NCBI GenBank assembly: GCA_021792615.1
Contig: JAJYUJ010000006.1
Span: 15,700 to 79,699 of the forward strand
DNA: 64,000 nucleotides
Origin: a bacterium
GTDB lineage: Bacteria; JAMCPX01
Direction: 5' to 3'
Part shown: piece by piece, positions 8,453-64,000 of the stretch
Layout: each line of letters opens with the position of its first letter
How positions within the stretch are numbered: the stretch's first letter is position 1
Program-made: the position numbers and the translations under genes
Notes under the pieces: model-generated
What the model saw: only the letters and a program-made list of their open reading frames with translations
Databases searched by the model: none
What the model was told of the DNA's origin: nothing

Positions 8453-9469
8453 CTAATTCTTGTTCTTGTCTACCAGCTTTTCTTTCTTGAGCCACGGCAT
8501 CATCTCTCTCAACTTCTGTCCGGTTTTCTCCGCAAGGTGCTCTTCGCCCTTCCTGGTCAGTGCGTTGAATACGGGCCTGTTCGCCTTATTCTCGAGGATC
8601 CATTCCTTTGCAAAACTGCCGTCCTGAATTTCCTTCAGAATCGACTTCATCTCGCACTTGACCGCGTCCGATATAACTCTCGGACCACGGGTCAGATCTC
8701 CAAATTGCGCGGTGTTGCTGACAGAGTATCTCATGTTCGACATGCCTCCTTCGTAGACAAGGTCGACGATGAGTTTCATCTCGTGAATACATTCGAAATA
8801 TGCCATCTCGGGTGCATAGCCGGCGTTAACGAGTGTCTCGAAACCGCCGAGCATAAGGGCTGTAACGCCGCCGCACAGAACAGCCTGCTCGCCGAACAGG
8901 TCGGTTTCCGTTTCTTCTTTAAAAGTCGTTTCAATAATACCTGCCCTGCCCGCACCGATGCCTGCGGCATAAGCAAGTCCTACCTCTTTCGTGTCTCCCG
9001 ATGGGTCCTGGTGTATTGCAAGCAGCGATGGCACTCCCCTGCCCTTGGTGTATTCACCTCTGACGAGATGCCCTGGACCTTTGGGAGCAACCATAAATAC
9101 GTTGACATCCGGAGAAGGGATAATCTGTCCGTAGTGTATATTAAAACCATGAGCAAACGCGAGATATGCCCCTTTCCTGAGGTTGGGTCCTATCTCTTTA
9201 CTATAAATGTCGGCCTGCAGTTCATCCGGAAGCAGGATCATGACGACATCCGCCTGTTTTACGGCATCCGCAATGTTGTACACCTTAAATCCGGCAGCCT
9301 CGGCCTTGGCCCATGATTTACCTTCCTTCCTTCCGCCTATAATAACATTCATCTTGCTTTCCTTCAGGTTGTTGGAATGACCGAATCCCTGACTTCCGTA
9401 ACCGATAATGGCTATAGTTTTACCCTTTAGCGGTTTCGTATCGATATCTTTTTCGTAATAAACTTTCAT
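8453..9469 (-). CDS. ilvC: ketol-acid reductoisomerase
   Basis: 338 aa with Rossmann motif [15 protein letters not shown]; length and sequence are typical of class-I KARI. Confidence 0.9.
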
Positions 9470-9632
9470 ACTGCCTCCTTTTATATTTTCATTTTTTTTA
9501 ATTACTTGTTTTTGTCATTCCGCACTTGATGCGCAATCCGGTTGTTTCTCTTTCTCTGGTTTCCCCTTTTCATGTGAATGACAGGAAAGACCGCTCTGGA
9601 ACGGAACAATCATATTTTTATTGTTTTACTCT

Positions 9633-25796: not shown

Positions 25797-26378
25797 TTAT
25801 TCCTGGATATCCAGGGTATAAATGATTTTCGCCTGACTGCCCGCCAGCACGGATTTATCCGGTACGTCTTTCACAACAACCGTCCCGCTGTGCACCACGG
25901 CATACCTGCCGATCTTTACCCCGGGAATTACCATGCAGCCGCTTAAAACAAAGCTGTAGTCGCCTACGATCATCGGCATATGACGGTCGGGTAAGAATTT
26001 TTTGAGCGGGTGATCGACATGGCTGCCTTTGAAATGCGTGAACAGCATAGTTCTGAAGCCGATGGTCACATACTTTCCGATGGTCATGGTGTCGTACAGA
26101 TCGATCAGGGCATCATCGTTGATATACGTACAATCCCCTATGGTCAGGCCCGGAAAGGACGCTTTGTGATAATTTTTGAACTGCACCTTCCCGATAAATA
26201 CGTTTTTCCCGATTTTTGCTCCCAGCATTCTGAGATAATAGACCCGCAATTGCGGCAGGGGTATCCAGTTAAAAAAGAATACGGCAACAGAATAAAAGGC
26301 ATATTTGAACAGGCCTTTAAACCCAACCTGTTTGATTGCAGCCACCAACAAAGAGCTATTTTCAGAATCCTGCGTCAT
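25797..26378 (-). CDS. left-handed beta-helix (hexapeptide-repeat) acetyltransferase, sugar N/O-acetyltransferase-like
   Basis: 193 aa with hexapeptide repeats (IGKYVTIG, VIPGVKIGRYAVVHSGTVV) and an N-terminal hydrophobic segment. Confidence 0.7.
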   Translation of the reverse strand: MTQDSENSSLLVAAIKQVGFKGLFKYAFYSVAVFFFNWIPLPQLRVYYLRMLGAKIGKNVFIGKVQFKNYHKASFPGLTIGDCTYINDDALIDLYDTMTIGKYVTIGFRTMLFTHFKGSHVDHPLKKFLPDRHMPMIVGDYSFVLSGCMVIPGVKIGRYAVVHSGTVVVKDVPDKSVLAGSQAKIIYTLDIQE

Positions 26379-26412
26379 GGATGTTTATTGCATGGATGTG
26401 CCGGAATTGTCA

Positions 26413-26432
26413 ACCCAGGCATTTATCATTGT
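26413..26432 (+). repeat. 20-bp direct repeat, copy 1 (ACCCAGGCATTTATCATTGT)
   Basis: An exact 20-mer shared with 26840-26859, with CAAC also shared just upstream. The two copies bracket a ~410-bp segment carrying two hairpin repeats. Confidence 0.8.
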
Positions 26433-26525
26433 CATTTAAAGTTGAAAAGTGGACTTATATAAATTATACAAATTTGTTTAGCGGAAGAAATTGATTGCTA
26501 GAAACATATCAAACTCAACGAGTTT

Positions 26526-26579
26526 GTCATTCCTGCCCGTGGGCTTCTCCGCAGATATGCTTGAGCAGGAATCCAGTTC
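26526..26579. repeat. hairpin repeat, family GTCATTCC-(stem-loop)-GGAATCCAGTT, copy A
   Basis: gtcattcctgcccgtgggcttctccgcagatatgcttgagcaggaatccagttc; the arms are CATTCCTGC and GCAGGAATC. Confidence 0.7.
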
Positions 26580-26651
26580 TTCAAAATAGTTCCCCGATTT
26601 CGCAGGGACAATGTCCATATTCTTAATGACCCGGTAATGACGGAGGTGTGA

Positions 26652-26684
26652 GAAACTGGATTCCCACTTTCGTGGGAATGACAC
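26652..26684. repeat. hairpin repeat, same family, copy B (inverted orientation)
   Basis: gaaactggattcccactttcgtgggaatgacac. Its reverse complement is GTGTCATTCCCACGAAAGTGGGAATCCAGTTTC, with a perfect inner stem CCCAC/GTGGG. Confidence 0.75.
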
Positions 26685-26839
26685 AAAACCAGTGTAGATA
26701 GATGTACATAATCTCTGTCACAGACGGTGATTTCCTCTCTTATTCTCAATGGAGCAGAGATAAGATTGAGAAACGGCATTATTTAGTAAACGAAGGATTA
26801 TTCGATCAAAAGTCAATCCACTTTAGAATTTTAAGCAAC

Positions 26840-26859
26840 ACCCAGGCATTTATCATTGT
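26840..26859 (+). repeat. 20-bp direct repeat, copy 2 (ACCCAGGCATTTATCATTGT)
   Basis: Exact match to 26413-26432; it lies 73 bp upstream of the yggS start. Confidence 0.8.
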
Positions 26860-26931
26860 TTCCTCAAAGGCGGAAGCGTGCTTCATCAAAAATAAATACA
26901 TCGATAATTGCATTAAAGAGTTACTTATACT

Positions 26932-27636
26932 ATGCATGATCCCAATATGGAAAACATCATAACCAGGATCAAAAGTTTACGGGAGGATATATCCGGCACA
27001 TGCCTCAAATCAGGCAGGGACATAAAAGACGTCAGGCTTATCGCTGTTTCAAAGACCGTTGGGATAGATAGGATAAAAGAGGCCGTTGATGCAGGACTCG
27101 ATACATTCGGGGAGAACTATGTCCAGGAAGCGCTTGAAAAGATCACCACGCTTCCTCCCTCTGTCCACTGGCACTTCATCGGCAATATTCAGAAAAACAA
27201 GGTACGGCATATCGTTCAATCGTTCGAGCTTATCCATTCCGTAGGCAGCAGCGACATTGCCGTGGAAATAGACAAACGTGCAGAGCAAAAAGGACATGTC
27301 CAGCCCGTGCTGTTCGAAATCAATGTCGCGGGTGAAGCAACAAAATCCGGCTTCCGCCCGGAGCAGTTTTTCAATGCACTGCAGCTCCTGAAAACACTGA
27401 AGCACCTGCGGCCGTCCGGACTCATGACCATGCCCCCGCCTGGCAACAGCGAAGCACAGCTGTCAAACTATTTTACCACACTGCGGGAACTCAGGGACAA
27501 GCTCCTGAAACAAGGGGTGTTCGGACAATCGTTCAAAGAACTGTCCATGGGTATGTCGTCCGATTTTAAAATTGCTATAAAAGAAGGGGCGACTATGATA
27601 AGAATCGGGACAGCACTATTCGGTCCAAGGGGGTAA
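26932..27636 (+). CDS. yggS: YggS-family pyridoxal-phosphate homeostasis protein
   Basis: 234 aa with the PLP-Lys context LIAVSKT plus HFIGNIQKNK and a TIM-barrel alanine-racemase-like N-terminal fold signature. Confidence 0.85.
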   Translation: MHDPNMENIITRIKSLREDISGTCLKSGRDIKDVRLIAVSKTVGIDRIKEAVDAGLDTFGENYVQEALEKITTLPPSVHWHFIGNIQKNKVRHIVQSFELIHSVGSSDIAVEIDKRAEQKGHVQPVLFEINVAGEATKSGFRPEQFFNALQLLKTLKHLRPSGLMTMPPPGNSEAQLSNYFTTLRELRDKLLKQGVFGQSFKELSMGMSSDFKIAIKEGATMIRIGTALFGPRG

Positions 27637-27638
27637 TT

Positions 27639-28451
27639 ATGGATAAAACAATAAGCTTTATCGGTGCGGGAAAAATGGCTGAAGCCATCATAGCAGGCCT
27701 GCTCTCCTCTAAAAAGGTCACCGGCAAACAGATCATCATCAGCGATAAATTCGATAAGAGGCGCATAGAGATAGAGGAGACCTACAATGTCAGAACGGTC
27801 ACAGCCAATACCGTGTGCGTGACCGAAGGAGATATATCTTTTCTGGCAGTGAAACCGCAGGACATGGCCGATGTCCTCGAGCAATGCAAAGAAACACTGG
27901 CGCAAAAACTGGTCGTGTCGATTGCAGCAGGAATAGAGATCTCCTTTTTGGAAGGATATATCGGCCAGCAAACACGCATCATACGGGTGATGCCCAATAT
28001 AGCGGCAACCGTGGGTGAGGGCATGAGCGTTATTATGAAAAATAACGCGGCTGATGCAACGGATATCAATCTTGTAAAAGAGCTGCTTGCGGGCGCCGGC
28101 GATGTGATTGAGATAAAGAACGAAGGCCTCTTTCATGCGGTAACGGCATTGAGCGGGTCCGGCCCTGCATACGTATTTGCATTCCTCGAAGCGCTTTCCG
28201 ATGCGGGTGTAAGAATGGGGCTGTCGAGGGACGTGTCCAACAAGCTGGCAGTGCAAACGGTCATCGGCGCAGGGAAGATGGCAAAAGAATCCGAGCTTTC
28301 ATTCGCGACATTGCGGGAGGCCGTTACCTCACCTGCAGGGACAACTGCAGAGGCGTTGGCAATACTCGAAGCAAAAGGCGTGAGATCCGCAGTCATCGAA
28401 GCCGTCAAAGCGGCGGCCCTGAGATCGAAAGAGATCAGCACCAAATCGTAA
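27639..28451 (+). CDS. proC: pyrroline-5-carboxylate reductase
   Basis: 270 aa with NAD(P)-binding IGAGKMAEAI and the C-terminal P5CR dimerisation region (SPAGTTAEAL). It starts 2 nt after the yggS stop. Confidence 0.9.
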   Translation: MDKTISFIGAGKMAEAIIAGLLSSKKVTGKQIIISDKFDKRRIEIEETYNVRTVTANTVCVTEGDISFLAVKPQDMADVLEQCKETLAQKLVVSIAAGIEISFLEGYIGQQTRIIRVMPNIAATVGEGMSVIMKNNAADATDINLVKELLAGAGDVIEIKNEGLFHAVTALSGSGPAYVFAFLEALSDAGVRMGLSRDVSNKLAVQTVIGAGKMAKESELSFATLREAVTSPAGTTAEALAILEAKGVRSAVIEAVKAAALRSKEISTKS

Positions 28452-28479
28452 ATTTACGGAACTGATAACGAACCGTGCG

Positions 28480-29004
28480 ATGGAAAGTGATTTCAGAATG
28501 AACGAACGGAAAGATAAAAAGGCCTTTGAAAGACCGCCATGGGACGATTATTTTATAGAGATTGCGAAGGCCGTCTCCTCGCGTTCGACGTGCCTGAGGA
28601 GAAAATATGGCGCCGTGATCGTCAAGGACAACGTGATCATAAGCACGGGCTATAACGGCTCGCCCAGGGGCATGCCGAACTGTTCCGACATCAATACCTG
28701 TAAACGCAAGGAACTCAATATCCCTTCCGGAGAACGCTATGAACTGTGCGAGGCTGTACACGCCGAGCAAAATGCGATCATAAACGGCACACCCGAGAGG
28801 ATGAAGGACGCAACGATCTATATTGCCGGGATCGAGGTCGAACAGCCCGGGTTTGCCGATGGAAGGCCGTGCCTTCTGTGCAGACGCATGATCCGGAACG
28901 CGCAGATTAAAACGGTCATCTACCTGTCAAAGGACGGCAGGATCGTACAAACAAGCAATATGAACACGCTGGAAGACCCTGTTCCCCTTCGTGGACTTAA
29001 ATAA
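28480..29004 (+). CDS. dCMP deaminase (ComEB-like cytidine/deoxycytidylate deaminase)
   Basis: Zinc-binding motifs HAEQNAI and PCLLCRRMI, with N-terminal WDDYFIEIAKAVSSRSTC. Confidence 0.8.
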   Translation: MESDFRMNERKDKKAFERPPWDDYFIEIAKAVSSRSTCLRRKYGAVIVKDNVIISTGYNGSPRGMPNCSDINTCKRKELNIPSGERYELCEAVHAEQNAIINGTPERMKDATIYIAGIEVEQPGFADGRPCLLCRRMIRNAQIKTVIYLSKDGRIVQTSNMNTLEDPVPLRGLK

Positions 29005-29177
29005 GCTCTATTCTGCAATCTCCACGCATTCCCCTCCCGTCAAGTTCCAGACAGAGCGGAACATGGTTTGCCTTTGAACCGAAGAGTTTTCCATGGGAAT
29101 GAAGAGCGCTCCCACCCTTCCAGTCTTTCCCCCTCGTTCAGGAAAGGATTTCTTACCTGCGATCAGCCCGTGCACGA

Positions 29178-30536
29178 TCAGAACACATAGCTTGCCTTCA
29201 GAAATACCTCGGAGTTGCCGATGATATTGCCGAAGACCGTTCCGCTGTCGCCTGCAAAAATGTATCCTCCGACGGCCATGGTTATGTTGTCATACGGCAT
29301 CCAGTCAAGCTCCGGATAAAACATATAGCTGGTAAGATTATGCTGGGCCAATTCCGTGATAATCGCTATCTGTGCCTTCAGCTTATCGTACAAGAAGCTG
29401 CGGTTCGCCATGAGACTCAGGTAATTCTGGAGCTGATTGCCTATTTCATAAAACTCTCCATGGAGGAACTGGAGGTTTGCATAGGTACCGTCGTTGAATG
29501 TATAATCGGTACCCAACACATATTTGACGAACGGTGAGGTTGCTATATCGTACGATGCTGCGGGATACGGCATATTCAGGACATAACTGTTGAACCTCAC
29601 CGGCTGCTGCGGTATGTTCAAAGCTATCTCGCCCCATACTCCGTGGTCCCCGATCGAACCTGCGAAATCCGCACCTATGATAGAAAGTCTCGGAAAATCG
29701 AGATTCGCATTTGCTATGATACTGTTTCCCGATGTCGTAATATTTGCAGAGGCGAGCTCGGGCAGTGTGTAGAAACCGTTATAATAGCTCAATGAAATGT
29801 CATAGCCATACAAAGCCTTCTTCGCCACCCTGAAGCCGTAACTCAAATCGCCGGGCATTGACTGCGCCGGCTCGGTCAGTCCTATGTTGATCTGATTGAG
29901 GTGCAACCATGGAGGTATCGGTTCGGAAGGTATAAATGCCGTTACCCATTTGTCTGAAGGAAGGACCGATGGAACAAACAGGGGTTCTATGACACCGGTC
30001 AACGAGATCTCGTGCGGGAAATAATATTCTGCAACAAGCAGAGGTACCGGCAGTTTATTGTTGAAGGCAAAAGGGTCTTCAAGGTCATAAGGGTTCACGT
30101 TGTTCGTAACATTCAACTCATCCGCTGTGCCCCAGTTGAGGATCTGTTTGCCGATTTTGACATCGAGGTTCTCCAGTAAAAAGCTGTAAAACTCGACATA
30201 CACCTGTCTGACGTCGAGATAGGTCGGCGGTTCTGAACTATACTGCTGCAATTGCGGCAGGTAGGTGGTCGGCTGTGTTATGCCGAAGCCCCGGAACCAA
30301 ACCTCGCCGTAAGCGTACAGTTCGTGTATCCTTTTTGCGGCAGTCAGGGTTACTCTGTATTCCTCCCTGCTGATATTTCCGTTCCCGGTCTCTGCCCGTG
30401 TATCCACGAGCAGGCTCCCGGAAACAGGGTTGTCCGCAAACACGGCATGAGATATCGACAGTAAGAGTATCGTCATTCCTGCGAAAGCAGGAATCCAGCG
30501 TTTTAGTATAGTCATCATAACTGTTTTGTTCTTCAT
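29178..30536 (-). CDS. putative outer-membrane beta-barrel protein; 5' end contains a dispersed hairpin repeat
   Basis: 452 aa. The N-terminal signal-peptide-like region and the C-terminus (..LKASYVF, aromatic terminal residue) are typical of OM beta-barrels, with alternating hydrophobic beta-strand patterns. Residues 14-22 (WIPAFAGMT) are encoded by repeat copy C. An alternative start is Met21 (30476) within the repeat. Family not assigned. Confidence 0.5.
   Translation of the reverse strand: MKNKTVMMTILKRWIPAFAGMTILLLSISHAVFADNPVSGSLLVDTRAETGNGNISREEYRVTLTAAKRIHELYAYGEVWFRGFGITQPTTYLPQLQQYSSEPPTYLDVRQVYVEFYSFLLENLDVKIGKQILNWGTADELNVTNNVNPYDLEDPFAFNNKLPVPLLVAEYYFPHEISLTGVIEPLFVPSVLPSDKWVTAFIPSEPIPPWLHLNQINIGLTEPAQSMPGDLSYGFRVAKKALYGYDISLSYYNGFYTLPELASANITTSGNSIIANANLDFPRLSIIGADFAGSIGDHGVWGEIALNIPQQPVRFNSYVLNMPYPAASYDIATSPFVKYVLGTDYTFNDGTYANLQFLHGEFYEIGNQLQNYLSLMANRSFLYDKLKAQIAIITELAQHNLTSYMFYPELDWMPYDNITMAVGGYIFAGDSGTVFGNIIGNSEVFLKASYVF
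30472..30498. repeat. hairpin repeat, same family, copy C (inside CDS 5' end)
   Basis: gtcattcctgcgaaagcaggaatccag, with a perfect 8-bp stem CATTCCTGC/GCAGGAATG-like. On the minus strand it translates to WIPAFAGMT. Confidence 0.8.
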
Positions 30537-30636
30537 ATATTTTTGGTTAAAAAGAGCGGCGATGGATCACATTGTCCATCACCCCGGATTGTTTTTTCAT
30601 AGCATCTCCCGGTTTTGTTTGCAATCATCTTTCCGT

Positions 30637-32406
30637 TCATAGAAACGCCTTTTTAGGGTCGAACAGCCGCATGGTAACGAGCGTCTCCTGCGATGGATAC
30701 GCTACGGGTTTCAGATTGCTCGCTATGCCCACATTCCATCCGGTCTTTTCCTTAACAGCCCTCACGTGTGCATCGATGTCCATACCGGGCTTTTGCGGAT
30801 ACCGGGTAAAAACAAATTCGTTCTTTTCGTCTTTTTCGAATACCCCCATATCCGTTACCAGCGTACTCACCTTTTTGCCGGGTCCCGTTATATAAGACAC
30901 CCTGTCGACAAAACGCATCTGGTTCAACGGACACACAACGATGGTTTCCTGCGCCCCCGCAGTAACATCGTTCCCGCCGCCGGACCCGACCAGGAATATG
31001 CCGTCACCGACCCTCGTCGAATTGATATTGCCGAACCTGTCGACCTGGCCTGCCCCGATGATACCGATTGTTTTGTTTGAATAACCCCCGACCATCAAGC
31101 CGAGTGCATCGAATGCGCTCGTCAGCATTTTACACGTCGGTATGTTCGCAAAATTAAAAATAAAAGGATTCCCTGGCCGCGGGTAATACCCGTAGAAACC
31201 TACCTCTGCTATGAGCTCCACATCGACCTTCTCCTGTTTCAACTTCACGGCGGACAGCCATGCCGCGATGTTCGAGTTCCCGATTCCCGCGAGCACGGCC
31301 CTGTATGATTTGTCGCGTATTTTCTCTTCAAGGACAACCGATGCCATTGCGGTCATGAGCTCATTTTTCGACGGCTGGTCCGATGGAGATATGGTGTCCT
31401 GAACATCCTTGATCTCATCGGCCCATGAAAGGGGTTTTGCCTTTCCTTTCAGATACAGCTGCTTTTGACTGCCGAGCTTATGAAGATACCCGTCATGGTC
31501 CTGTACTCCCGTTATCCAGTCGTGGATCCACGTATCGAGGGTGTCCAGGGATTTTGCCGCTTCCCTGAACCCGAGTATAAAATCATAATCTTCGCTGTAC
31601 CCGTCAAACTCGGAAAACCCGCTTTCTGCCATACCGCTGGGATGTGAGCCGAACTCCATAGGTACAACCGCCTTTACGAGGTACGACGGCAGCTTTGAAA
31701 GGTGGGAATATTTGCGTATAACGTCCTCATCGACGATATGCTCTGCCGAAAGAATCACGCCGTTGCGGCTTGCATAGGCGCCATAGAACTCCTCTGCATA
31801 GGGCGGTGTGAATATCGCATGACCCGATTTGTCCGCAACAAAGGCATGATACAGGGAAATATCCGGGTTCACGGCTTTCAGCGCACCTATCTCTTTCGAC
31901 GGCTCGAACGGCATCGGTATTCTTTTGAAACTGCCGGCGTTTTCTGTCTCCATGGTGCTGTCCATAATGGAGTTTACCGGTAAAAAGCCGACCCCCAGTG
32001 CACCTGCCATAAGCCTGAGCGTAAATGCAAGAATACTCCAATTCTCGATGTCCACCTGCTTGTTCAGATAGAGGTTTTGAACGACGATGTTCGGGGTCGG
32101 AGACGGATAGGGATCCCCGGCGTACGTTGTTATGACCTTTTTTACCATGCCGAGATGCATCATAACGATAATGTGGTTGATGGCACCAAGGGTTATTATG
32201 TCAAACCCAGGTTTTGTCTTATAAAACTGCCGGATCAGTTCATAGGAAAGTCCGTACGGAATGCTGTTCGTTATACCGATATGGATTGCCATACCGGGTT
32301 TGATGAAATTTCTTATCGCTGCATCCGCACTCATTATCTTGTCCGTGCCGTCTTCCTTCGGAAGACTCGTGAAAGATTCAAGTACATTTTTAACGAATTT
32401 GTCCAT
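30637..32406 (-). CDS. family-I CoA-transferase, fused A+B subunits (glutaconate/3-oxoacid CoA-transferase-like)
   Basis: 589 aa. The N-terminal half is CoA-transferase subunit-A-like. The C-terminal half is subunit-B-like (IGIIGAGQVDRFGNINST, GSGGGNDV). Confidence 0.65.
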   Translation of the reverse strand: MDKFVKNVLESFTSLPKEDGTDKIMSADAAIRNFIKPGMAIHIGITNSIPYGLSYELIRQFYKTKPGFDIITLGAINHIIVMMHLGMVKKVITTYAGDPYPSPTPNIVVQNLYLNKQVDIENWSILAFTLRLMAGALGVGFLPVNSIMDSTMETENAGSFKRIPMPFEPSKEIGALKAVNPDISLYHAFVADKSGHAIFTPPYAEEFYGAYASRNGVILSAEHIVDEDVIRKYSHLSKLPSYLVKAVVPMEFGSHPSGMAESGFSEFDGYSEDYDFILGFREAAKSLDTLDTWIHDWITGVQDHDGYLHKLGSQKQLYLKGKAKPLSWADEIKDVQDTISPSDQPSKNELMTAMASVVLEEKIRDKSYRAVLAGIGNSNIAAWLSAVKLKQEKVDVELIAEVGFYGYYPRPGNPFIFNFANIPTCKMLTSAFDALGLMVGGYSNKTIGIIGAGQVDRFGNINSTRVGDGIFLVGSGGGNDVTAGAQETIVVCPLNQMRFVDRVSYITGPGKKVSTLVTDMGVFEKDEKNEFVFTRYPQKPGMDIDAHVRAVKEKTGWNVGIASNLKPVAYPSQETLVTMRLFDPKKAFL

Positions 32407-44555: not shown

Positions 44556-44629
44556 GTCATTGTGAGCGAAGCGAAGCAATCTTCCTCTCTACGAGTAGAT
44601 TGCTTCGTCATTTTATTCCTCGCAATGAC
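44556..44629. repeat. nested-palindrome intergenic repeat (GTCATTGTGAGCGAAGCGAAGCAATC ... GATTGCTTCG...CTCGCAATGAC) between the two RND genes
   Basis: The outer arms GTCATTGTGAG / CTCGCAATGAC and the inner arms GAAGCAATC / GATTGCTTC are reverse complements. It encodes the spurious peptide CHCERSEAI in ORF 44444-44665. A related arm, GTCATTGCGA...GAAGCAATCTC, appears at 54424-54458. Confidence 0.8.
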
Positions 44630-54423: not shown

Positions 54424-54500
54424 GTCATTGCGATGCGTCATCGGTGCAGAAGCAATCTCTCCCTTCCCTGTCATTCCCGTAAAAACGGGAATCCAGTTCC
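54424..54500. repeat. composite hairpin repeat copy E (GTCATTGCGA...GAAGCAATCTC + GTCATTCCCGTAAAAACGGGAATCCAGTTCC)
   Basis: It joins both repeat sub-families and has a perfect stem CCCGT/ACGGG. It generates the spurious ORF 54400-54612 (..IPVFTGMTGKGE..). Confidence 0.75.
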
Positions 54501-55959: not shown

Positions 55960-56135
55960 TATGGGGGATTTAAGGGGGTTGAGAGCCCGGACTGAAGAGT
56001 CACCACTGTTCTGTCATTATGATGCTCAGTCAAAGAATCTGCCTTTTCTCTCCGGAATTATAATCTCCGGCGACATTCCTCGCTCCTCCATTCCTTCTTC
56101 TTGCCTTTTCTGCAAGCAACATGCTATCTGAAAAC

Positions 56136-57482
56136 ATGCGTTCGAACCTCGTTATAAACATAATCTTTATTACAAGTGCCATGGTACTTGGATGGTTTCT
56201 GTTCAATCCGAGTTACAGCGATCCTATAGAATACCTTCTTATGCTTGTATTTTTTGTATTGATTGCATGGATTATATTGGTAACTTTTGTCCCTGATCAA
56301 AAAGAACGGGGCTACCTTATATCTATTTTCTTAATTGCGCTGGCATTAAGGATGCTTGTATCCCTGCTTGTCCATGCACTGCTTCCCCCGGGCTATTTTG
56401 CACCGGATGAACCCGGCACACTCATGAATGGAAGGATGATTGCTGAATCATGGTCAGGCAATGCCATGCCGTATAACTTTCATGGAGGTATATATGCTAT
56501 TGCCGGGGCTGTGTTTTATATCTTCGGCTATAAACCAAATATCTTATTTTTACTTGCGAACTTCCTCGGTGCATTGACTGTCTTAAATGCCTATTTTATA
56601 ACAAAGCGCCTGTTCAATGCGCAGTCGGCACGCTACACCGCTATGGTTGTAACCATATTACCGTCGCTTATTTTATGGTCGTCCATGCCATTAAAAGACA
56701 TTTATTCGCAGTTTGCTATTACATCCATCATACACCTGACTCTGAGGATTAAGGAGCACTTCAGAATAAGCAATCTTATGCTTATTTTATTCTTGATTGC
56801 ATTTGTTGGATTCATTAGAGAATATCTTGTGATTATCGTTTTAATGGCTATTGCAGCTACCTTTATTCCTGTACGCAAAGAAACCTTTATCCGGAATGCA
56901 ATTGTTATAGCGGTTTTTGCCTTGTCATTTGCATTGTTCTTTTCATCGTATGAGGCGAAACAGGTGCCCAATCATGGAGAAAAATCAGGAGGTACATTTC
57001 AGACACTGCAACAAACCAGACAGGGGTTTTATCAGGGGGGCTCAAAGATACTTGGACACATAAATATATCCAATCCAATCAATGCACTTCTGTATTCGCC
57101 TTTGCTCTTAGCAGTTTTTTTTCTTGCGCCCTTCCCGTGGCAGATCTCGGGCAGTATATTGCATAACCTCGCAACAGCAGAAAGTCTCGTATGGTATTAT
57201 TTTTTTTATTACGCAATAAAAGCTATTATACGATCATTTAAAGAAGGAAAATTTGACGTGATGCCTGTGCTGGTTATGATCGGAGTATTATCAGTTGCTT
57301 ACGCACTTGCAATATCGAATATCGGTGCGGCATACCGTTTCAGGGCACAGGTTTCAGTGCTTTTTTTGGTCTTTACAGGCTATGGACTTTATTTAAGGAA
57401 GCAGGAACATCTAATAAAATATGCCCTGCCTGATGGACCAAAAGTTTCTTCCGCTTATCCGACAACCCCAAATAAGATGTAA
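56136..57482 (+). CDS. polytopic membrane protein, tandem paralog 2 of 54634-55959
   Basis: About 70% identical to paralog 1 over its full length (YFAPDEPGTLMNGR, FLLANFLGA.TVLNAYFITKRLFN.QSARY..., NLATAES.VWYY.FYYAIKAIIRSFKEG.FD). Confidence 0.55.
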   Translation: MRSNLVINIIFITSAMVLGWFLFNPSYSDPIEYLLMLVFFVLIAWIILVTFVPDQKERGYLISIFLIALALRMLVSLLVHALLPPGYFAPDEPGTLMNGRMIAESWSGNAMPYNFHGGIYAIAGAVFYIFGYKPNILFLLANFLGALTVLNAYFITKRLFNAQSARYTAMVVTILPSLILWSSMPLKDIYSQFAITSIIHLTLRIKEHFRISNLMLILFLIAFVGFIREYLVIIVLMAIAATFIPVRKETFIRNAIVIAVFALSFALFFSSYEAKQVPNHGEKSGGTFQTLQQTRQGFYQGGSKILGHINISNPINALLYSPLLLAVFFLAPFPWQISGSILHNLATAESLVWYYFFYYAIKAIIRSFKEGKFDVMPVLVMIGVLSVAYALAISNIGAAYRFRAQVSVLFLVFTGYGLYLRKQEHLIKYALPDGPKVSSAYPTTPNKM

Positions 57483-57670
57483 TACCCCAAGTGAATATCC
57501 AAAATCTACTGAACCATCATCCAATGGTATGTGATCAACACTTGCCCGATGGAATACACAATTATTAACCCGAAAAATGCGTCTGAAAAATAAGGAAGTT
57601 TATGCAATGAGCGATAAGCCCGCGTCAAACAAAGGTATGCTTCGAAAATCCGATAAGGAAACCATACCGG

Positions 57671-58181
57671 GTAATAGCATATAAACCCCGTTAGAAATGT
57701 TAGAATAATACAGATATTTTAATGAACGGGTGTTCGCCGCAATCCACGCTATTTATAGCGTGGTAAAGGCGAACTATTCGATTGATATATTCCATACCGA
57801 CGAAGAATTCATGCCGTTTACGGCGTGGTTCTTCAATTTTAAATCTATTGTTGTACAAATTATCGTCTGCTGAGTTTCTAACGGGGTAAACATACAGAGG
57901 ACTAAAAGCTCGTTCCTATAAGGAAACTTATAGATATCAGGTGGATCGCGGGATTGAGCGAATAAGGAAACTTCCTTATTGCATTTTTCAGGTTAAACAA
58001 TTTTAGATTTCCCCGCGCTACATTTAATGCTTCTTCACTGGGATCTATACAGTACAAAGTTCCAATGCGGGGAGCTACAAACTTTGCCTACCTAACCGTT
58101 TGAAAATAATGGTGTTTTTGAAATCACCATCATCGCAAGTCTTTATAGTACTTTGTTCTCTAACGGGGTTTACAGAATACC
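57671..58181. repeat. ORF-free hairpin-rich segment bounded by inverted copies of a TCTAACGGGGTTT motif (MITE-like or structured-RNA locus)
   Basis: The motif copies are at 57671-57697 (inverted), 57875-57897 and 58156-58181. Internal perfect hairpins include GTTCGCC..CCACGCTAT-TT-ATAGCGTGG..GGCGAAC (about 57725-57775), GCCGTTTACGGC and AATAAGGAAACTTCCTTATT. No ORF of at least 60 aa lies on either strand. Confidence 0.45.
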
Positions 58182-58190
58182 GCCTCTCTA

Positions 58191-59699
58191 TTACTTAAAA
58201 GAAACCTGATAAGCTAAGCCTATTTTTCGAATATCAAAAGTTTTCTGCAGATCAGGAATAAAATAGTATTGAGCATTATTATCGGCAAGAAACACTGTCC
58301 TTTTGTCCTTCAACTCTGCTGAAATATAACGAGTTAGAGCACTACCGCCATCCTTGCCCATAAAAACATATTGATCCTCATCCACGATAGTTACATCTTT
58401 TCTTAAGCCGTAAGCATTCTGATAATACCGTAAAACCTCTTCCGGGGTAAAATCCGAGATTAAAATCGCATTTTCTGGCAATGCTGCAAATATTTCGTTT
58501 GAATATTTCATAGGACCATAATTTCTATTTTTGTTTGGAACAAGGAAATATTCAACATTATTCCTAAAAGGCAGTGTCCGTGCATGAACAACCATCATCT
58601 TAGGATGACTCAATAAATATGCTGAAACGGTATTATAAAAAGCTATTGGAGTAACAAATAATAGGACCAACAATAAAACAGAGACAGTATTAGTTTTGGT
58701 AAATGAAAAATGTTTATTTAACCATTTTATCCCGTATCCAATAATAATAGAAAAAATCATAAAACTTGGAACCAAAAGGTTAAAAGCACGCTGTAGCATA
58801 TAAACGGATGCGAAGAAAACATCTAAAATAAATACTATAGCTAATGAGTAAAAGAATATTTTTTCTGTTTTAAGACTTTCGTATATTCCCATAACACCTA
58901 TTATGAGACCCCATACAGGGAATTGATAGAACAGGTAAGCCGGATATAAGATTAGTTGTTTAACAAAATGCTGAAATGACATAAAATAGGCTTTTATGCC
59001 CAAATTTATTTCCAAAATTATACTTTCAAATGGATGAGTATTGAATACATGTGATGCTGCATATATTTTTAACAACGAAAGAGGCAAAACAAAACCAAAA
59101 AGAATTCCAATAAATATTGCAGCTATTTTTCTATTGTTCAATATGATCTTTTTATCTATTGATAAAAAGAAATATAAATATGCCGGTAAAAATACCACTA
59201 ATAACATGTTTGCAAAAACACTGAGAGCGTACGACAGCGTAAATAAAAACAGATATAGCGGTTTATGATTCTCCTTATATTTGATCATGATGAAAAGTAA
59301 TATTGCAAAAAAGAAATAGGTTAAAGAATAACTTTCATTTACGACAGACATAAACCAAAACATTTGTGATACAGCAAGTGAAATTACAGCCGCTAATGCG
59401 GCAATCTTAGAACCTAATATCTTCTCGCTATCAAGGTAGAATATACCAAGAGTTAAAGACCCCCAAAATGCTGACATGAGATTTTGCTTATAAGCAATAT
59501 CCCTAATCGGCAATAGATTAAAAAGTAATCCAAGCAGTGTATGAAGGTTGTGTCCACCAACAAAATCGAAAGTGAATTTTTTATTTATAACATAATTTAC
59601 AAGCTTAGCACTATCTCCCCATGTTATGCCCGGAGATAATGTGTATAAATAAAGGCCAAAGCTGAAAATTGTTACCAATATCCAGAAATATTTACGCAT
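58191..59699 (-). CDS. DUF2723/TMEM260-like GT-C-fold protein (putative protein O-glycosyl/mannosyltransferase family)
   Basis: The start is taken at MRKYFWILV (59699), which makes a TAATG overlap with the upstream GT4 stop. The N-terminal signature YLYTLSPGITWGDSAKL fits DUF2723. There are ~10 TM helices and a soluble C-terminal domain. Confidence 0.55.
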   Translation of the reverse strand: MRKYFWILVTIFSFGLYLYTLSPGITWGDSAKLVNYVINKKFTFDFVGGHNLHTLLGLLFNLLPIRDIAYKQNLMSAFWGSLTLGIFYLDSEKILGSKIAALAAVISLAVSQMFWFMSVVNESYSLTYFFFAILLFIMIKYKENHKPLYLFLFTLSYALSVFANMLLVVFLPAYLYFFLSIDKKIILNNRKIAAIFIGILFGFVLPLSLLKIYAASHVFNTHPFESIILEINLGIKAYFMSFQHFVKQLILYPAYLFYQFPVWGLIIGVMGIYESLKTEKIFFYSLAIVFILDVFFASVYMLQRAFNLLVPSFMIFSIIIGYGIKWLNKHFSFTKTNTVSVLLLVLLFVTPIAFYNTVSAYLLSHPKMMVVHARTLPFRNNVEYFLVPNKNRNYGPMKYSNEIFAALPENAILISDFTPEEVLRYYQNAYGLRKDVTIVDEDQYVFMGKDGGSALTRYISAELKDKRTVFLADNNAQYYFIPDLQKTFDIRKIGLAYQVSFK

Positions 59700-60793
59700 T
59701 ACAATGATCCGTCTTCTCCACCGACTTTCCTTAAAACCTCCACATATTTGGGTGCCCATACTTTGACAGAATATCGTTCTTCTACTGTTTTCCGCCCAGC
59801 CTTTCCAAGACTCTGTCTTAACTCAGGATTTTCTATCAGTAACGTTAATTTCTTAATCCATTCTTCTTCATCTTTAGCCAGAAATCCATTTACCCCATCC
59901 TGTATGATCTCTGTATTTACACCAACCGGAGACGCCACGCATGGTATCTCCATAGCCATATACTGCAATGCCTTCAATCCGCACTTGCCCTTTGCCCACT
60001 CGTCATCAGGTAATGGCATAATGCCTATATCAAATTCAGCCATCTCTGCCAATTCCGTATTCAATGACCACTTAATGCAATTTGTTTGAATACCAGAAGC
60101 ATTGTATGTTCCACCTATAACATTCAGTCTGTAATGTTGAGGCAGGTGCTTCCAAATATTATCAAGCAATTTAAGATACATAGCTGTAGATCCGCTGCCT
60201 ATCCACCCAATCACAAGATTTTGTTGCTGTTTTTGTACCTGTGCAACAGGTTTGTAATAATCCGTATCAACCACAGTGGGTATAACGGAAACATTATTAT
60301 TGAATAACCTTGAATGCCGGGCAAGATATTCATTGCCGGCAATTATATGCGTGAAAAGCTTCATGATCTTGTCAAACTTCTTCTCGGATTTTACAATTTT
60401 TTTAATAAAAGGGCTTATACCTGTCTGGCTTTTAACCGGTATCCATATTGCATCGTCAAAATCAAATATGGTTGGTATACCTTTTCTTGAGATGTATCTT
60501 TCTATCCATGGTCTACCGAACAGCATCGCTTCTCTATAAACCACTACAACATCATAAGATTGGATATTGGATAAACTCCGCATCTGCCGTATTATACCAT
60601 TTATGAGGATGCTGATCTTTGTAAACAGTGAAGAGGTTGATTCATTATATATCCGCATATATTCCCCACCATTAAGAAAAGTACTTATTGTATATTCGAT
60701 GCCTGCCTTCTTAAAATATGGCAGATATTGATATATACGGAACCTTGGACCGGGAGATTCAATTGGATGCGGTAAAAGTATTAAGATCTTCAT
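59699..60793 (-). CDS. GT4-family glycosyltransferase (GT-B fold)
   Basis: 364 aa. The C-terminal domain carries the EX7E-like region (EFDIGIMPL...GLKALQYMAMEIPCVASPVGVNTEIIQDGVNGFL). Confidence 0.8.
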   Translation of the reverse strand: MKILILLPHPIESPGPRFRIYQYLPYFKKAGIEYTISTFLNGGEYMRIYNESTSSLFTKISILINGIIRQMRSLSNIQSYDVVVVYREAMLFGRPWIERYISRKGIPTIFDFDDAIWIPVKSQTGISPFIKKIVKSEKKFDKIMKLFTHIIAGNEYLARHSRLFNNNVSVIPTVVDTDYYKPVAQVQKQQQNLVIGWIGSGSTAMYLKLLDNIWKHLPQHYRLNVIGGTYNASGIQTNCIKWSLNTELAEMAEFDIGIMPLPDDEWAKGKCGLKALQYMAMEIPCVASPVGVNTEIIQDGVNGFLAKDEEEWIKKLTLLIENPELRQSLGKAGRKTVEERYSVKVWAPKYVEVLRKVGGEDGSL

Positions 60794-60811
60794 TGCTTTT
60801 CTTTATTCGTT

Positions 60812-61681
60812 TTAGACCTCTACTTTGAATTTCGTCCTTTTTATAAAAGCAGCTACATCTTTCACTGCTATCAGATTCTCTAAATGAGAAGATACATAAT
60901 GAGATGTGTCCTTAATTTCACAAATGTGTTCTTTCCCCACTATTCTAAATATCTTATAGCCTTTTGTGGTAAGAAAGGATAACACATCCTGAGTCCCATA
61001 AGCAAATCTGTTGTACTGCCCTTCATATGATTCATAATAAATACAATCCGTTTTATCCAATACATCTCCCGCACCTTTTAAAACAAATAATTCGTACCCC
61101 TCTGTATCTATTTTAAGAAGATTAATCCTCTGAATCGTAGAAGGTATCAAATCCTCTAATTTTGAAAGTTTTGTTTTAACAGTTTTGATGTTATTTGATT
61201 TGCCTGCCACAATATAGTTACAACCGTCAGACCTCAAATCTGCCAATTCAGCAACTGAATTTTGATCCCCAAGAGCCATACAGAAGGGTTCTATATTGCG
61301 GAACTCGTTTAATTTTATATTCTTTAATAGATATTTATTGTATGTTTTGGGATTAGCTTCAAAAGCATACACTTTACCATTCTCTTTTGCCAATGAAGCA
61401 CTCAATAAGGTTAATTCCCCAATATTGGCCCCAATGTCTACAATTATATCTCCACTTTTGAGATAACTTATAAAAAAGTTTTCGTCGTATTGTCTATCGC
61501 TTGGGATTGTATACAGTCCTCTTGAATATGTAGTTGAATAAAACTTTATCTTATATCTTCCACGATCTATCAAAAACGGCATGGAAATCCCTATTTTTCT
61601 GAGCAATTCAGCTATAATTAGCTTACATGAATGTTCATGACTTAATAATCTTTGAACTTTCTTTAAAAGTATATTCCCCAT
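60812..61681 (-). CDS. FkbM-family SAM-dependent methyltransferase
   Basis: SAM-binding motif VDIGANIGELTL and FkbM-type core (VYAFEANP). Confidence 0.75.
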   Translation of the reverse strand: MGNILLKKVQRLLSHEHSCKLIIAELLRKIGISMPFLIDRGRYKIKFYSTTYSRGLYTIPSDRQYDENFFISYLKSGDIIVDIGANIGELTLLSASLAKENGKVYAFEANPKTYNKYLLKNIKLNEFRNIEPFCMALGDQNSVAELADLRSDGCNYIVAGKSNNIKTVKTKLSKLEDLIPSTIQRINLLKIDTEGYELFVLKGAGDVLDKTDCIYYESYEGQYNRFAYGTQDVLSFLTTKGYKIFRIVGKEHICEIKDTSHYVSSHLENLIAVKDVAAFIKRTKFKVEV

Positions 61682-61729
61682 ATCCTCTATCCTCTTTTAA
61701 TTTTCTTATTGTATTTTATATAATGCAAG

Positions 61730-62560
61730 TTACTCTATATTTCTCATATCTTCGCGAGAAATCAACCTCTCATATATCGGTGAGGCTTCATTGACAAGTT
61801 CAAATTTGCTAAGACCTTTGATGAACTGTTTCCTTTTAAAAGTCAACATTTGATACAAAGCTGGTATCTTATATTTATCAATGACAGCGGTAATTTTTCC
61901 TATCATACTTCCAGAGGCAACATAATCTATCGAAGATTTAAAATATTCAAGTTTGACAGGGGGCGGGTATAGACAACGAAATGAGGCAATACCACCATAG
62001 TTATAGAATTTATGCCATGCATCAGAAGTTGTTATAAGTGGGGTGTTAACTTTAATCATACCTTTTGCTGCTTCCTTATGGACTACGTACGCTGTTGCTG
62101 CTGCTACATCCTGAATATTAATGGGATATAATAATTTCCCTGATTTTAACGTCTCTGCCCCTTTTAAGGATAATTTTATAATCTGATGAGAGGTATAAAA
62201 AAGGGATATAACTTCATTTTTCCCGATCACATGGCTAAGTTCGGTTAATATATCGTTTATGTTTTTGGGCAATAAAGCATCGTCCTCTATAATAAAGGCA
62301 TATTCTAAATTTTGTTCCACCATTTTATTTAATACAAGATAGTGAGATATTGAACAACCAAGCATTCCGTTTGATGCATAATATCCACTGTGATTCCTTA
62401 CAGCGTTAATATCACAATAATGAGATATTTCACCTTCGGTTAGTAACTGTCCGTCTACAGCATCAAAAAGCTCATAATCTACATGCAATCTATTGCATTG
62501 ATCAACCATAAATTCTCTTCTTCGCTTAGACCTTTCTAAACTAATTATGAATGTTTTCAT
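61730..62560 (-). CDS. GT25-family glycosyltransferase (LPS/LOS beta-glycosyltransferase Lic2B-like)
   Basis: N-terminus MKTFIISLERSKRRREFMVDQ...ELFDAVDG is typical of Glyco_transf_25. Confidence 0.8.
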   Translation of the reverse strand: MKTFIISLERSKRRREFMVDQCNRLHVDYELFDAVDGQLLTEGEISHYCDINAVRNHSGYYASNGMLGCSISHYLVLNKMVEQNLEYAFIIEDDALLPKNINDILTELSHVIGKNEVISLFYTSHQIIKLSLKGAETLKSGKLLYPINIQDVAAATAYVVHKEAAKGMIKVNTPLITTSDAWHKFYNYGGIASFRCLYPPPVKLEYFKSSIDYVASGSMIGKITAVIDKYKIPALYQMLTFKRKQFIKGLSKFELVNEASPIYERLISREDMRNIE

Positions 62561-62592
62561 GTATAACTCTTTGAGACTATTTTAATTGGAAT

Positions 62593-63852
62593 TTATAAGT
62601 TTTCATATATCCCCTTATACCTCTCAACACCAACTTCCACAGACATCTGTTTGATTACAAATTCTCGTGCACGGTTTTGAAAGTCATGCTCTCTTGTATA
62701 TGACAGTGCTATTTCAAACGCCCGTTTAAACTCCTCATCGTTAAACCTATAAACAATAGATCCAAGATTATTTCCAAGAATTATTTCTTCCGTATCTCCT
62801 ACTCCTGAGTTCCCAATCACCGGCAATCCACATGCAAGATATTCCGCAAGCTTGGTTGGAGATGATGACTGTTTTGCAAAACTGGGTTTAATAAAGAATA
62901 TACCTATATCAGTTGCCCATAGATATTTGTAGACAACATCAGGACTTACAACTTTAATCAGATAATCTGACACTTCCACTCCACTGCTTTCGAGAAACTG
63001 TTTCGCATATTTATGTTCACTCTTATTAAGTATAAGAAAGAACGCCTTAGGGTATGCATTTTTTACTGCATTAAAGTACTCTACCATTTTATCAAACATA
63101 TACCATGTTCCGAGAGACCCGGAGTAAACGACCACAAGTCTATCTGATACATCAAGTTCTTTCCGAATTCTCTCCCTTTCTGGCAGATCTCTTGCAGGAA
63201 AACGTTTACTGTCAACGCAGGTTGGGATAACAGTAATTGGAGCATTAATATAAGCAAATGGTTTTAGATATGTACTTATATTATTTGTAAGCACCACTAT
63301 CGCATCTGCATTTTTAAGCATCTTCTTTTCAGCCAATTTTGTAATTTTGTAGCTTATACTTTTTCTTGTCCATTGCCCTGCATCCACCTTCTCATCAGCC
63401 ATCATACCACGCATATCAAATATGATTTTTGTACTTATGAGCTTTTTTAAAAGCAATGCCATCATTCCTGGCACATAACTCCGTGCATGAATAATGTAAT
63501 ATGGCTCCTGAGTATAAAAGAGGATTGCTTTTACGATGCCATGCGAGATGTCATACACAGAGGAGAAAAAATGAGGATATTTATGGTATTTCAGGGCAAT
63601 CCATCCAATACCGGCTTCATCAAGCTGTATTTTAACCTTTTGATATTCCTTTTCAAAATCCTTTTCATAATGGTGCTCAAAAGATAATATTGTAAACTTA
63701 TAGCCCTGTTTAGAAAGCCCGATTATATACGGTATCACCTGTGATTGTCCCAGCGGCTGACACAGACCATTATAGGTGAAATAAAGTACTCTATTAAAAC
63801 GCCGGTTGAAATTAACAAAAGGGAATAAAAAGATTCTGACCGCCCATTCCAA
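62593..63852 (-). CDS. GT4-family glycosyltransferase; N-terminal boundary uncertain
   Basis: N-domain VLYFTYNGLCQPLGQSQVIPYIIGL and C-domain PTKLAEYLACGLPVIGNSGVGDTEEI (EX7E-like). The listed start is a TTG codon. The same frame has no stop up to the window end at 64000. Confidence 0.7.
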   Translation of the reverse strand: MEWAVRIFLFPFVNFNRRFNRVLYFTYNGLCQPLGQSQVIPYIIGLSKQGYKFTILSFEHHYEKDFEKEYQKVKIQLDEAGIGWIALKYHKYPHFFSSVYDISHGIVKAILFYTQEPYYIIHARSYVPGMMALLLKKLISTKIIFDMRGMMADEKVDAGQWTRKSISYKITKLAEKKMLKNADAIVVLTNNISTYLKPFAYINAPITVIPTCVDSKRFPARDLPERERIRKELDVSDRLVVVYSGSLGTWYMFDKMVEYFNAVKNAYPKAFFLILNKSEHKYAKQFLESSGVEVSDYLIKVVSPDVVYKYLWATDIGIFFIKPSFAKQSSSPTKLAEYLACGLPVIGNSGVGDTEEIILGNNLGSIVYRFNDEEFKRAFEIALSYTREHDFQNRAREFVIKQMSVEVGVERYKGIYENL

Positions 63853-64000
63853 AAATCGCGATGTAAATAATATGTTGGGATCAGAGAGTAATGCCTTTTT
63901 TACGAAAGGCTTGGCATTGTCCAGATCATTTTTAGAAAAATAAGCTATTGCTATATATAAATAACCGTATGCATAAGCTTTATGTTTGTATTTTTTTATA

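Follow-up and report, generated by a model that had tools for sequence, protein, structure and literature searches.

What are the short inverted repeats scattered through this locus, and with which protein do they belong? The window, by which we mean the whole 64,000-nucleotide stretch analysed here, carries two kinds of small oriented hairpins, families A and B. An earlier note, made from the letters of the sequence, had considered them to be either an active or recently active MITE- or REP-like element system or a set of protein-binding sites. We think it highly probable that both families are Ssn-related motifs (SRMs), i.e., recognition and cleavage sites of small single-domain GIY-YIG endonucleases (Ssn) that act only on single-stranded DNA (ssDNA). 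This reading builds on the NTS/dRS3 identity of the motif, the covarying stems, the link between gene and hairpin for both types in other genomes, and the presence or absence of copies at the strain level, all of which we observe here. An explanation of family A was published in 2025, its core having been known since 2000; to this family we add only a new host. What is new is this deltaproteobacterial host, the apparent pairing of family B with a second Ssn clade, and the gain and loss of hairpin-bearing segments between strains.

Four full copies of family A lie in the window (Table 1), all at the places where they had been reported, with the form GTCATTCC-stem/loop-GGAATCCAG; their common form can be written YGTCATTCC-NNN-GAAA/AAAA-NNN-GGAATCCAG. 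The full pattern is found four times against an expectation of approximately 2e-4, and not once in 300 dinucleotide shuffles. The three inner stem pairs vary from copy to copy in a compensating manner (TGC/GCA, CAC/GTG, CGT/ACG). When folded as ssDNA, the three compact copies each form an 8-bp stem with a 4-nt loop, with dG from -7.5 to -8.9 kcal/mol and z-scores from -2.4 to -4.8. The remaining copy (26526-26579) has an enlarged loop, and large-loop variants of this kind flank Ssn genes in other genomes. Further copies of the 72-nt spacer that separates it from its inverted neighbour were looked for and none was found.

Family B is represented by three full copies of the form GTCATTGYGA-(7-15 nt)-GAAGCAATC (approximately 2e-5 expected; none in 300 dinucleotide shuffles), again at the two sites reported before, one of which is an inverted pair of units between two RND efflux permease genes (44556-44629). 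The stem, ATTGC/GCAAT, is followed by a GA/GAA internal loop and then by a variable inner module, which is usually a mini-hairpin of the GCGNAGC type (GCGAAGC, GCGCAGC or GCCGAAGGC). Strong hairpins had been claimed for all copies. The claim is right for family A and for the inverted B pair, which folds strongly as ssDNA (dG -22.3; z -6.9), and is overstated for single B units, which fold weakly by nearest-neighbour energies (z from +0.25 to -1.3). Families A and B share one oriented frame, YGTCAT...ATC, which is present in all four A copies and all three B copies of the window, and in 197 A and 182 B copies listed from other sources. With at least 197 A and at least 182 B copies in other collections, the repeats are dispersed families, as had been proposed, and not local duplications.

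Among the less complete candidates, 9514-9541 is plausible as a degenerate copy, with GTCAT, a stem with one mismatch, and ATC; only faint remnants of it are seen in more distant relatives. The stretch 29020-29125, which had been named beside it, was rejected as a repeat copy: it has ATTCCC/GGGAAT half-sites only, without GTCAT. Two GTCATTCC 8-mers, at 9374 and 22910, were also set aside; both lie within genes and look like chance matches. A loose scan of the window for GTCAT plus stem plus ATC returned noise only and added no copies.

Table 1. Hairpin copies of families A and B and the segments associated with them (positions are those of the window).
Feature	Position	Strand	Sequence and remarks
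Decayed SRM-like copy	9514-9541	+	GTCATTCCGCA-CTTGA-TGCGCAATCC; stem with a single mismatch; in the ilvH-ilvC gap
Decayed family A copy, inverted partner of 9514-9541	9562-9588	-	GTCATTCaCatGAAAaggGGAAaCCAG; 5 of 8 stem pairs left
Strain-specific segment holding the A pair	26433-26859	.	427 nt; direct repeat CCCAGGCATTTATCATTGT at 26414-26432 and 26841-26859
Family A hairpin with 28-nt loop insert	26526-26579	+	GTCATTCCTGC-[28 nt]-GCAGGAATCCAGTT; 8-bp outer stem
Spacer between inverted A hairpins, GTCAT ends outward	26580-26651	.	72 nt; NIME-like layout
Family A hairpin	26652-26684	-	GTCATTCCCACGAAAGTGGGAATCCAGTT; fits dRS3 ATTCCC-N8-GGGAAT; DNA fold dG -7.5 kcal/mol
Family A hairpin	30472-30498	+	GTCATTCCTGCGAAAGCAGGAATCCAG; within 5' end of minus-strand DUF1302 ORF; dG -7.8, z -4.0
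Family B unit	44556-44581	+	GTCATTGTGAGCGAAGCGAAGCAATC; canonical TGCGAG in related strains
Family B unit, inverted	44598-44629	-	with 44556-44581 forms a B(+)/16 nt/B(-) pair
Family B hairpin	54424-54458	+	GTCATTGCGA-TGCGTCATCGGTGCA-GAAGCAATC; stands 10 nt upstream of the A copy at 54469-54500, in tandem with it
Family A hairpin	54469-54500	+	TGTCATTCCCGTAAAAACGGGAATCCAGTT; dG -8.9, z -4.8
Family B hairpin sequence form			GTCATTGCGAGCGAAGCGAAGCAATC

To which known repeats do these hairpins correspond? The copy at 26654-26682 (CTGGATTCCCACTTTCGTGGGAATGAC) is identical at 27 of 27 positions to a gonococcal dRS3/NTS copy (PMC7593972), and the gonococcal layout, dRS3(+)/approximately 75 nt/dRS3(-), is the same as that of the window at 26526-26684. 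The RS3 primer CATTCCCGCGCAGGCGGGAATC (PMC2527323) also matches family A. The 20-bp dRS3 pattern ATTCCC-N8-GGGAAT, with no mismatch, is found at 26660-26679 and 54473-54492, and the other two A copies have ATTCCT...AGGAAT instead. Chenal et al. (Nat Commun 2025; PMC11893778) extended dRS3 to an oriented 28-nt motif, the NTS (CGTCATTCCCGCGMAVGCGGGAATCYRG), and generalised it to the SRMs. No window copy matches the strict NTS consensus with one mismatch or fewer; the compact copies differ from it at two to four positions, mostly by compensating stem changes. The published SRM pattern, HGTCWYN(0-2)YYVSBRHN(0-5)WNVSBRGN(0-2)RNCYNB, drawn by hand from 29 genomes, matches only 54469-54496; the remaining three A copies deviate from it at one or two positions of the stem, and no B copy fits. 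Because the pattern is hand-drawn, a copy outside it may still belong to the class. The A copies of the window are of the SRM class, and not NTS in the strict sense. In 197 A-type copies listed from viral contigs (10-nt centre), pairing at the three inner positions of the stem is kept in 98-99% of cases through several pair types, and the flanks YY-GTCATTCC...GGAATC-YAG are conserved.

The biochemistry of the partner protein was described in the same 2025 paper (PMC11893778). SsnA is a 94 amino acid long single-domain GIY-YIG protein that binds and cuts the NTS as ssDNA only; neither the double-stranded form nor RNA is bound or cut. Cutting depends on the GTC that precedes the palindrome on its 5' side, and binding on the C that directly follows on its 3' side; cleavage persists when the loop is extended. 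Cleavage of SRMs as ssDNA was shown for four Ssn/SRM pairs; an SRM lies near the ssnA homologue in 71% of cases and on both sides in 42%. The authors raised the possible mobility of hairpin/ssn units as a hypothesis, and dRS3 is given as the target of the recombinase (transposase) of Neisseria filamentous prophages (PMC11893778). In the window, the GTC 5' of the palindrome and the C 3' of it are kept in all A and B copies.

Does a single-domain GIY-YIG gene of this (cd10448-like) kind accompany family A elsewhere? GIY-YIG ORFs (Pfam: PF01541) are found directly between or beside A hairpins at loci L115, L052 and L006. A protein-first scan of viral contigs gave 12 Ssn-like loci; A-like hairpins (GTCAT-N-CC...GG-N'-ATC) are present within approximately 125 nt at nine of them and within approximately 180 nt at ten, and a B hairpin is near none of the 12. 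The Ssn protein family comprises 13,232 clusters (50% identity, E-value at most 1e-3). A protein search with a consensus seed led to a Firmicutes UPF0213-like clade and was unhelpful.

For family B, an HMM search for GIY-YIG genes over 120 listed B-bearing genome loci gave two clear cases. In a Planctomycetota MAG (L467) the gene stands between B(+) and B(-), and the B array of L495, a Pedobacter MAG, stops 38 nt upstream of the gene. The canonical 26-mer of our lineage at the 44556-44581 site is identical, at 26 of 26 positions, to the B(+) copy beside the GIY-YIG gene of L467. Proteins of the L467/L495 type (alignment A8) were used to fetch 80 metagenomic relatives. A B hairpin lies within 150 nt in 51 of these 80 loci and on both sides in 35, mostly with B(+) upstream and B(-) downstream; an A-like hairpin is present in one of the 80. 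Aligned by hhalign, the proteins linked to A and those linked to B prove homologous along their whole length (probability 99.8%, 40% identity) and fall into distinct clades, of which the B-linked one has the signature YILTN...IKGGSRxKK. Judged by genomic association, family B looks like the SRM of a second Ssn clade. The homology of the partner proteins and the common GTCAT...ATC frame both bear out the suspected kinship of A and B. By analogy with the Ssn link in other genomes, the hairpins of the window are plausibly the protein-binding sites that had been considered, and the wider view of them as protein-bound, perhaps mobile hairpins is sound; the partner gene is not in the window. In viral contigs, no GIY-YIG gene adjoins B at the 119 B loci listed, and scans for B(+)/approximately 300-350 nt/B(-) gave approximately 60 matches each, about the chance number; the two of these matches with full B units are B arrays without a gene.

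Among the matches listed from species-representative genomes, family B occurs in more than 15 phyla with 19 bases exactly conserved. The hosts listed are Chloroflexota, Alpha- and Gammaproteobacteria (many Bradyrhizobium), Desulfobacterota, Nitrospirota, Omnitrophota and Patescibacteria, and further Bacteroidota, Cyanobacteria, Zixibacteria, Planctomycetota, Chlorobiota, Ignavibacteriota, Helicobacter, Sporomusa and other groups. Close B pairs with a spacer of approximately 23-26 nt have a preferred orientation: among the matches listed, '+-' pairs outnumber '-+' pairs by 20 to 0 in viral contigs, and close pairs in genomes do so by 36 to 4. The window pair has the same B(+)/B(-) form as these dominant pairs. 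A literature search for B-type sequences, and for the spurious peptides discussed below, found no match. An A-like hairpin is also present in nine of the 120 B-chosen genome loci (L397-L516; e.g., L401, L409, L415), so that A and B co-occur in several unrelated phyla and not only in the host genome. On phage-like viral contigs (L126-L244; e.g., L141, L162), B lies between structural genes, often as several copies of the same orientation. Phages may help to carry B motifs between hosts.

The host is an uncultured deltaproteobacterium, and the proteins found to be at least 90% identical to window proteins belong to MAGs named 'Deltaproteobacteria bacterium'. The approximately 55 window genes are all housekeeping genes, among them ilv, glutamine synthetase, ammonium transporters, RND efflux and glycosyltransferases; none is a transposase, recombinase or GIY-YIG gene. 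Searches for GIY-YIG ORFs with phmmer and HMMs found no GIY-YIG/Ssn gene in the window, in 8.5 kb more of the contig, or in the related-strain loci fetched, and the additional 8.5 kb, on one side of the contig, hold no further hairpin copies. The copies had been described as intergenic or at the 5' ends of genes, and this is what we find in the window: they lie in a divergent promoter region (26.5 kb), in gaps between co-directional genes (9.5, 44.6 and 54.4 kb, the last between the M48 and PMT genes) and at a gene 5' end (30.5 kb). No copy in the window is at a convergent operon end, and the idea that the copies mark operon ends finds no support. A terminator scan called no hairpin in 26300-31000 as an intrinsic terminator, and a separate true terminator-like site is located at 30583-30558. 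Rfam gave no family over the whole window at gathering thresholds and, at relaxed thresholds (26380-26930 and 57400-58250), one chance-level snoRNA match only; a tRNA scan of the window found none.

The copy at 30472-30498 gives an example of a hairpin inside a coding region. It reads in frame as ...KRWIPAFAGMTILLLSISHAVFA within the minus-strand ORF 29178-30536 (DUF1302). In the inferred translation, the in-frame reading MKNKTVMMTILKRWIPAFAGMTILLLSISHAVFA followed by DNP resembles a signal peptide, of which the repeat would encode the hydrophobic core. The stretch is 100% conserved in related strains; the start of the gene differs among gene callers (452, 446 or 432 amino acids). Rickettsia palindromic elements, which are 100-150 bp in length, are inserted in frame into genes. 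Our copy likewise seems, by inference, to keep the gene intact and to contribute in-frame residues to a signal peptide, but it is a single 27-nt hairpin of unrelated sequence.

Are the copies stable among related strains? Those at 30.5 kb and 44.6 kb are fixed. The A pair at 26.5 kb, on the other hand, is part of a 427-nt segment that is absent in seven related-strain contigs, whose empty sites have a single copy of CCCAGGCATTTATCATTGT. The segment reaches 93 nt and approximately 175 nt past the hairpin pair, and the hairpins are not its borders. Its 19-nt direct repeat is too long for the usual target-site duplication and could be an att-like core or a recombination product. L252-L254 have the B+A tandem of 54.4 kb, which the more distant L255 lacks together with approximately 180 nt around it. 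At 29.08 kb, an insertion of approximately 590 nt, bracketed by B(+) and B(-), is found in L248-L250 only; its 440-nt core, as compared in L248 and L249, is 92% identical to window positions 57562-58001, which there stand without B flanks. Both this insertion and the 54.4-kb indel have fuzzy borders. Intergenic mosaics of the Neisseria type behave in this way. The comparison shows turnover, and it does not show a mechanism because the borders of the segments do not coincide with the hairpins. The suggestion of an active MITE system stays a hypothesis: segments are gained and lost between strains, but the 26.4-26.9 kb segment is not bounded by hairpins.

The region that shares its sequence with the 29.08-kb insertion has features of its own. 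Positions 57562-58001 form a non-coding cassette of approximately 440 nt with terminal inverted repeats of approximately 30 nt, evidently mobile or recombining. Nested in it is a 217-nt element (57686-57902) with terminal inverted repeats of 12-13 nt (CCCCGTTAGAAA) and two strong internal hairpins (RNA fold z = -6.2; no Rfam match), a solo end of which lies at 58160-58177. This element is missing from L250 and thus represents a separate MITE-like insertion. The surrounding 56000-64000 has a GC content of 35-37% versus approximately 47% elsewhere, and encodes mannosyl- and glycosyltransferases and an FkbM methyltransferase. Downstream of PMT_2 its gene content departs from that of relatives, and the stretch probably represents a variable surface-polysaccharide cluster.

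Could the same observations be explained without Ssn cleavage sites, or with a different mode of spread? The alternative nearest to our reading differs from it only in how the copies spread: the hairpin pairs would be non-autonomous MITE-like derivatives of an IS-like hairpin/ssn/hairpin unit that is actively moving, transposing through ssDNA by means of the GIY-YIG nuclease. The order hairpin(+)/gene/hairpin(-), with GTCAT ends outward for both A and B, would suit such a unit. So would the excess of gene-less '+-' pairs with a fixed short spacer (20 versus 0 and 36 versus 4, among the matches listed), the presence or absence of hairpin-bearing segments between close strains, and the exact conservation of 19-26 nt over more than 15 phyla (among the matches listed), which implies horizontal spread; the idea was also raised by the authors of PMC11893778. 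We nevertheless regard this mode of spread as unlikely. We know of no strand-transfer or joining activity for Ssn, which has cleavage alone to its name. The 427-nt segment, which overshoots the hairpin pair by 93 nt and approximately 175 nt and has a 19-nt direct repeat, is not a clean hairpin-to-hairpin insertion; the remaining indels have fuzzy borders, and several copies are fixed, their sequence unchanged from strain to strain. The 19-nt direct repeat that flanks the 427-nt segment has no explanation in any known activity of Ssn. Equally doubtful, in our opinion, is the wider proposal that hairpin/ssn/hairpin is an unrecognised class of mobile element moving via ssDNA, with at least two co-evolving specificities across most bacterial phyla, and that the mosaics of the window are its non-autonomous offspring, still being gained and lost.

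Other explanations depart further from the Ssn system. An RNA-level role, with the hairpins acting in termination, in mRNA stabilisation or in processing between cistrons and their abundance resulting from selection for gene regulation, would fit the several copies that separate co-directional neighbours (ilvH-ilvC, the two RND permease genes, M48-PMT), and the stems would form in RNA too. It is nonetheless improbable: the copies lack a T tract and hence do not score as intrinsic terminators, no Rfam family matches, either orientation to the direction of transcription is found, RNA is not bound by SsnA (PMC11893778), and the cross-phylum identity of the GTCAT/ATC flanks points more readily to a site recognised by a protein than to a generic stem. 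We give about as little weight, or slightly less, to the idea that the hairpins are mainly places where site-specific recombinases or phages attach or find their target, in the manner reported for dRS3 and the Neisseria filamentous prophages (PMC11893778). The motifs are common on prophage-like contigs of IMG/VR, sometimes at contig ends, and the 19-nt direct repeat around the 427-nt segment resembles an att-core duplication; but that repeat is not the hairpin itself, the window copies have no recombinase gene in their vicinity, and the segments inserted are short and without coding sequence. Such use would be an additional use of the sites and not an explanation of the family. The least credible candidate, to which we attach hardly any probability, is a REP/BIME-type system in which the hairpins are bound and mobilised by a RAYT of the IS200/IS605 Y1 family. 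The general likeness is real: in both cases short, oriented extragenic palindromes work as single-stranded hairpins, often in inverted pairs and clustered in mosaics, a gene is flanked by inverted repeats, and gene-less copies far outnumber the gene; the loop, moreover, is often GNAG or GTAG. However, the gene that lies repeatedly between or beside the hairpins, both in our scans and in PMC11893778, is the single-domain GIY-YIG nuclease Ssn (approximately 100 amino acids) and not an HUH/Y1 transposase, so that the RAYT/IS200-like partner named in the earlier note has to be replaced. Ssn is known as a cleaving enzyme and not for any transposition chemistry; the hairpins here have no conserved 5' GTAG tetranucleotide, and there is no transposase of any kind among the approximately 55 window genes.

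The reading of A and B as SRMs would work as follows. An SRM is an oriented DNA hairpin made of YGTCAT, a palindromic stem and ATC(Y); A is the dRS3/NTS type first seen in Neisseria, and B would be a second type paired with a second Ssn clade. According to published experiments, the hairpin forms once the DNA is single-stranded, e.g., in incoming transforming DNA, and Ssn binds the stem and the C just after it, its cut falling a few bases from GTCAT on the 5' side. As the ancestral unit we would propose hairpin(+)/ssn gene/hairpin(-). Gene-less inverted pairs and solo copies would accumulate in intergenic mosaics like the NIMEs of Neisseria, and these mosaics would be gained and lost between strains. 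We infer that the genome of the host deltaproteobacterium has, outside the window, genes for one or two Ssn nucleases, and that these would cut the window copies. Their role would presumably be the control of ssDNA, in transformation or horizontal transfer, or else the spread of the repeats themselves. The window copies could also be orphan sites, without a cognate nuclease in the host.

How closely do the hairpins resemble the systems described before? With the SRM/NTS motifs (PMC11893778) they share the oriented frame of YGTCAT, palindrome and ATC(Y)RG, the ATTCC(C)...(G)GGAAT stem of family A (with one copy identical to a gonococcal copy), the intergenic and multi-copy occurrence, and the link between gene and repeat, which we reproduced for A and B in other genomes. 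They differ in the host, an uncultured deltaproteobacterium with no ssn gene in the part of the genome available, and in that three of the four A copies and all B copies are outside the published search pattern, itself hand-drawn from 29 genomes. Family B differs further in its ATTGC stem, GA/GAA internal loop and inner mini-hairpin, and in its pairing, judged by genomic association, with a different Ssn clade. The likeness to dRS3 and the NIMEs (Parkhill 2000; Bentley 2007, PMC1797815) consists in the 20-bp ATTCCC-N8-GGGAAT core of two window copies, in the inverted pairs that bracket spacer cassettes, and in the mosaics that differ between strains. In contrast to Neisseria, the cassettes here are larger (72 to approximately 590 nt) and share no sequence kinship with the RS elements of that genus, there is approximately one copy per 9 kb as against hundreds per 2.2-Mb genome, and the mosaics contain hairpins of a second type as well.

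Recognition of these motifs has consequences for annotation. The repeats account for the spurious peptides that had been connected with them: GTCATTCCCGCGAAAGCGGGAATCCAG reads VIPAKAGIQ, and its complement reads WIPAFAGMT. The A and B motifs together yield many spurious 'hypothetical proteins' (WIPAFAGMT, SFPRKRESS, CHCERSEAI, LLAMT and similar), which can be masked once they are recognised. The same motifs flag genomes that are likely to carry Ssn nucleases, and the apparent pair of family B and the second Ssn clade could offer a new cleavage specificity for ssDNA tools. Finally, the presence or absence of copies among near-identical strains provides natural material for testing the movement of these elements, which was a hypothesis only in the 2025 paper.
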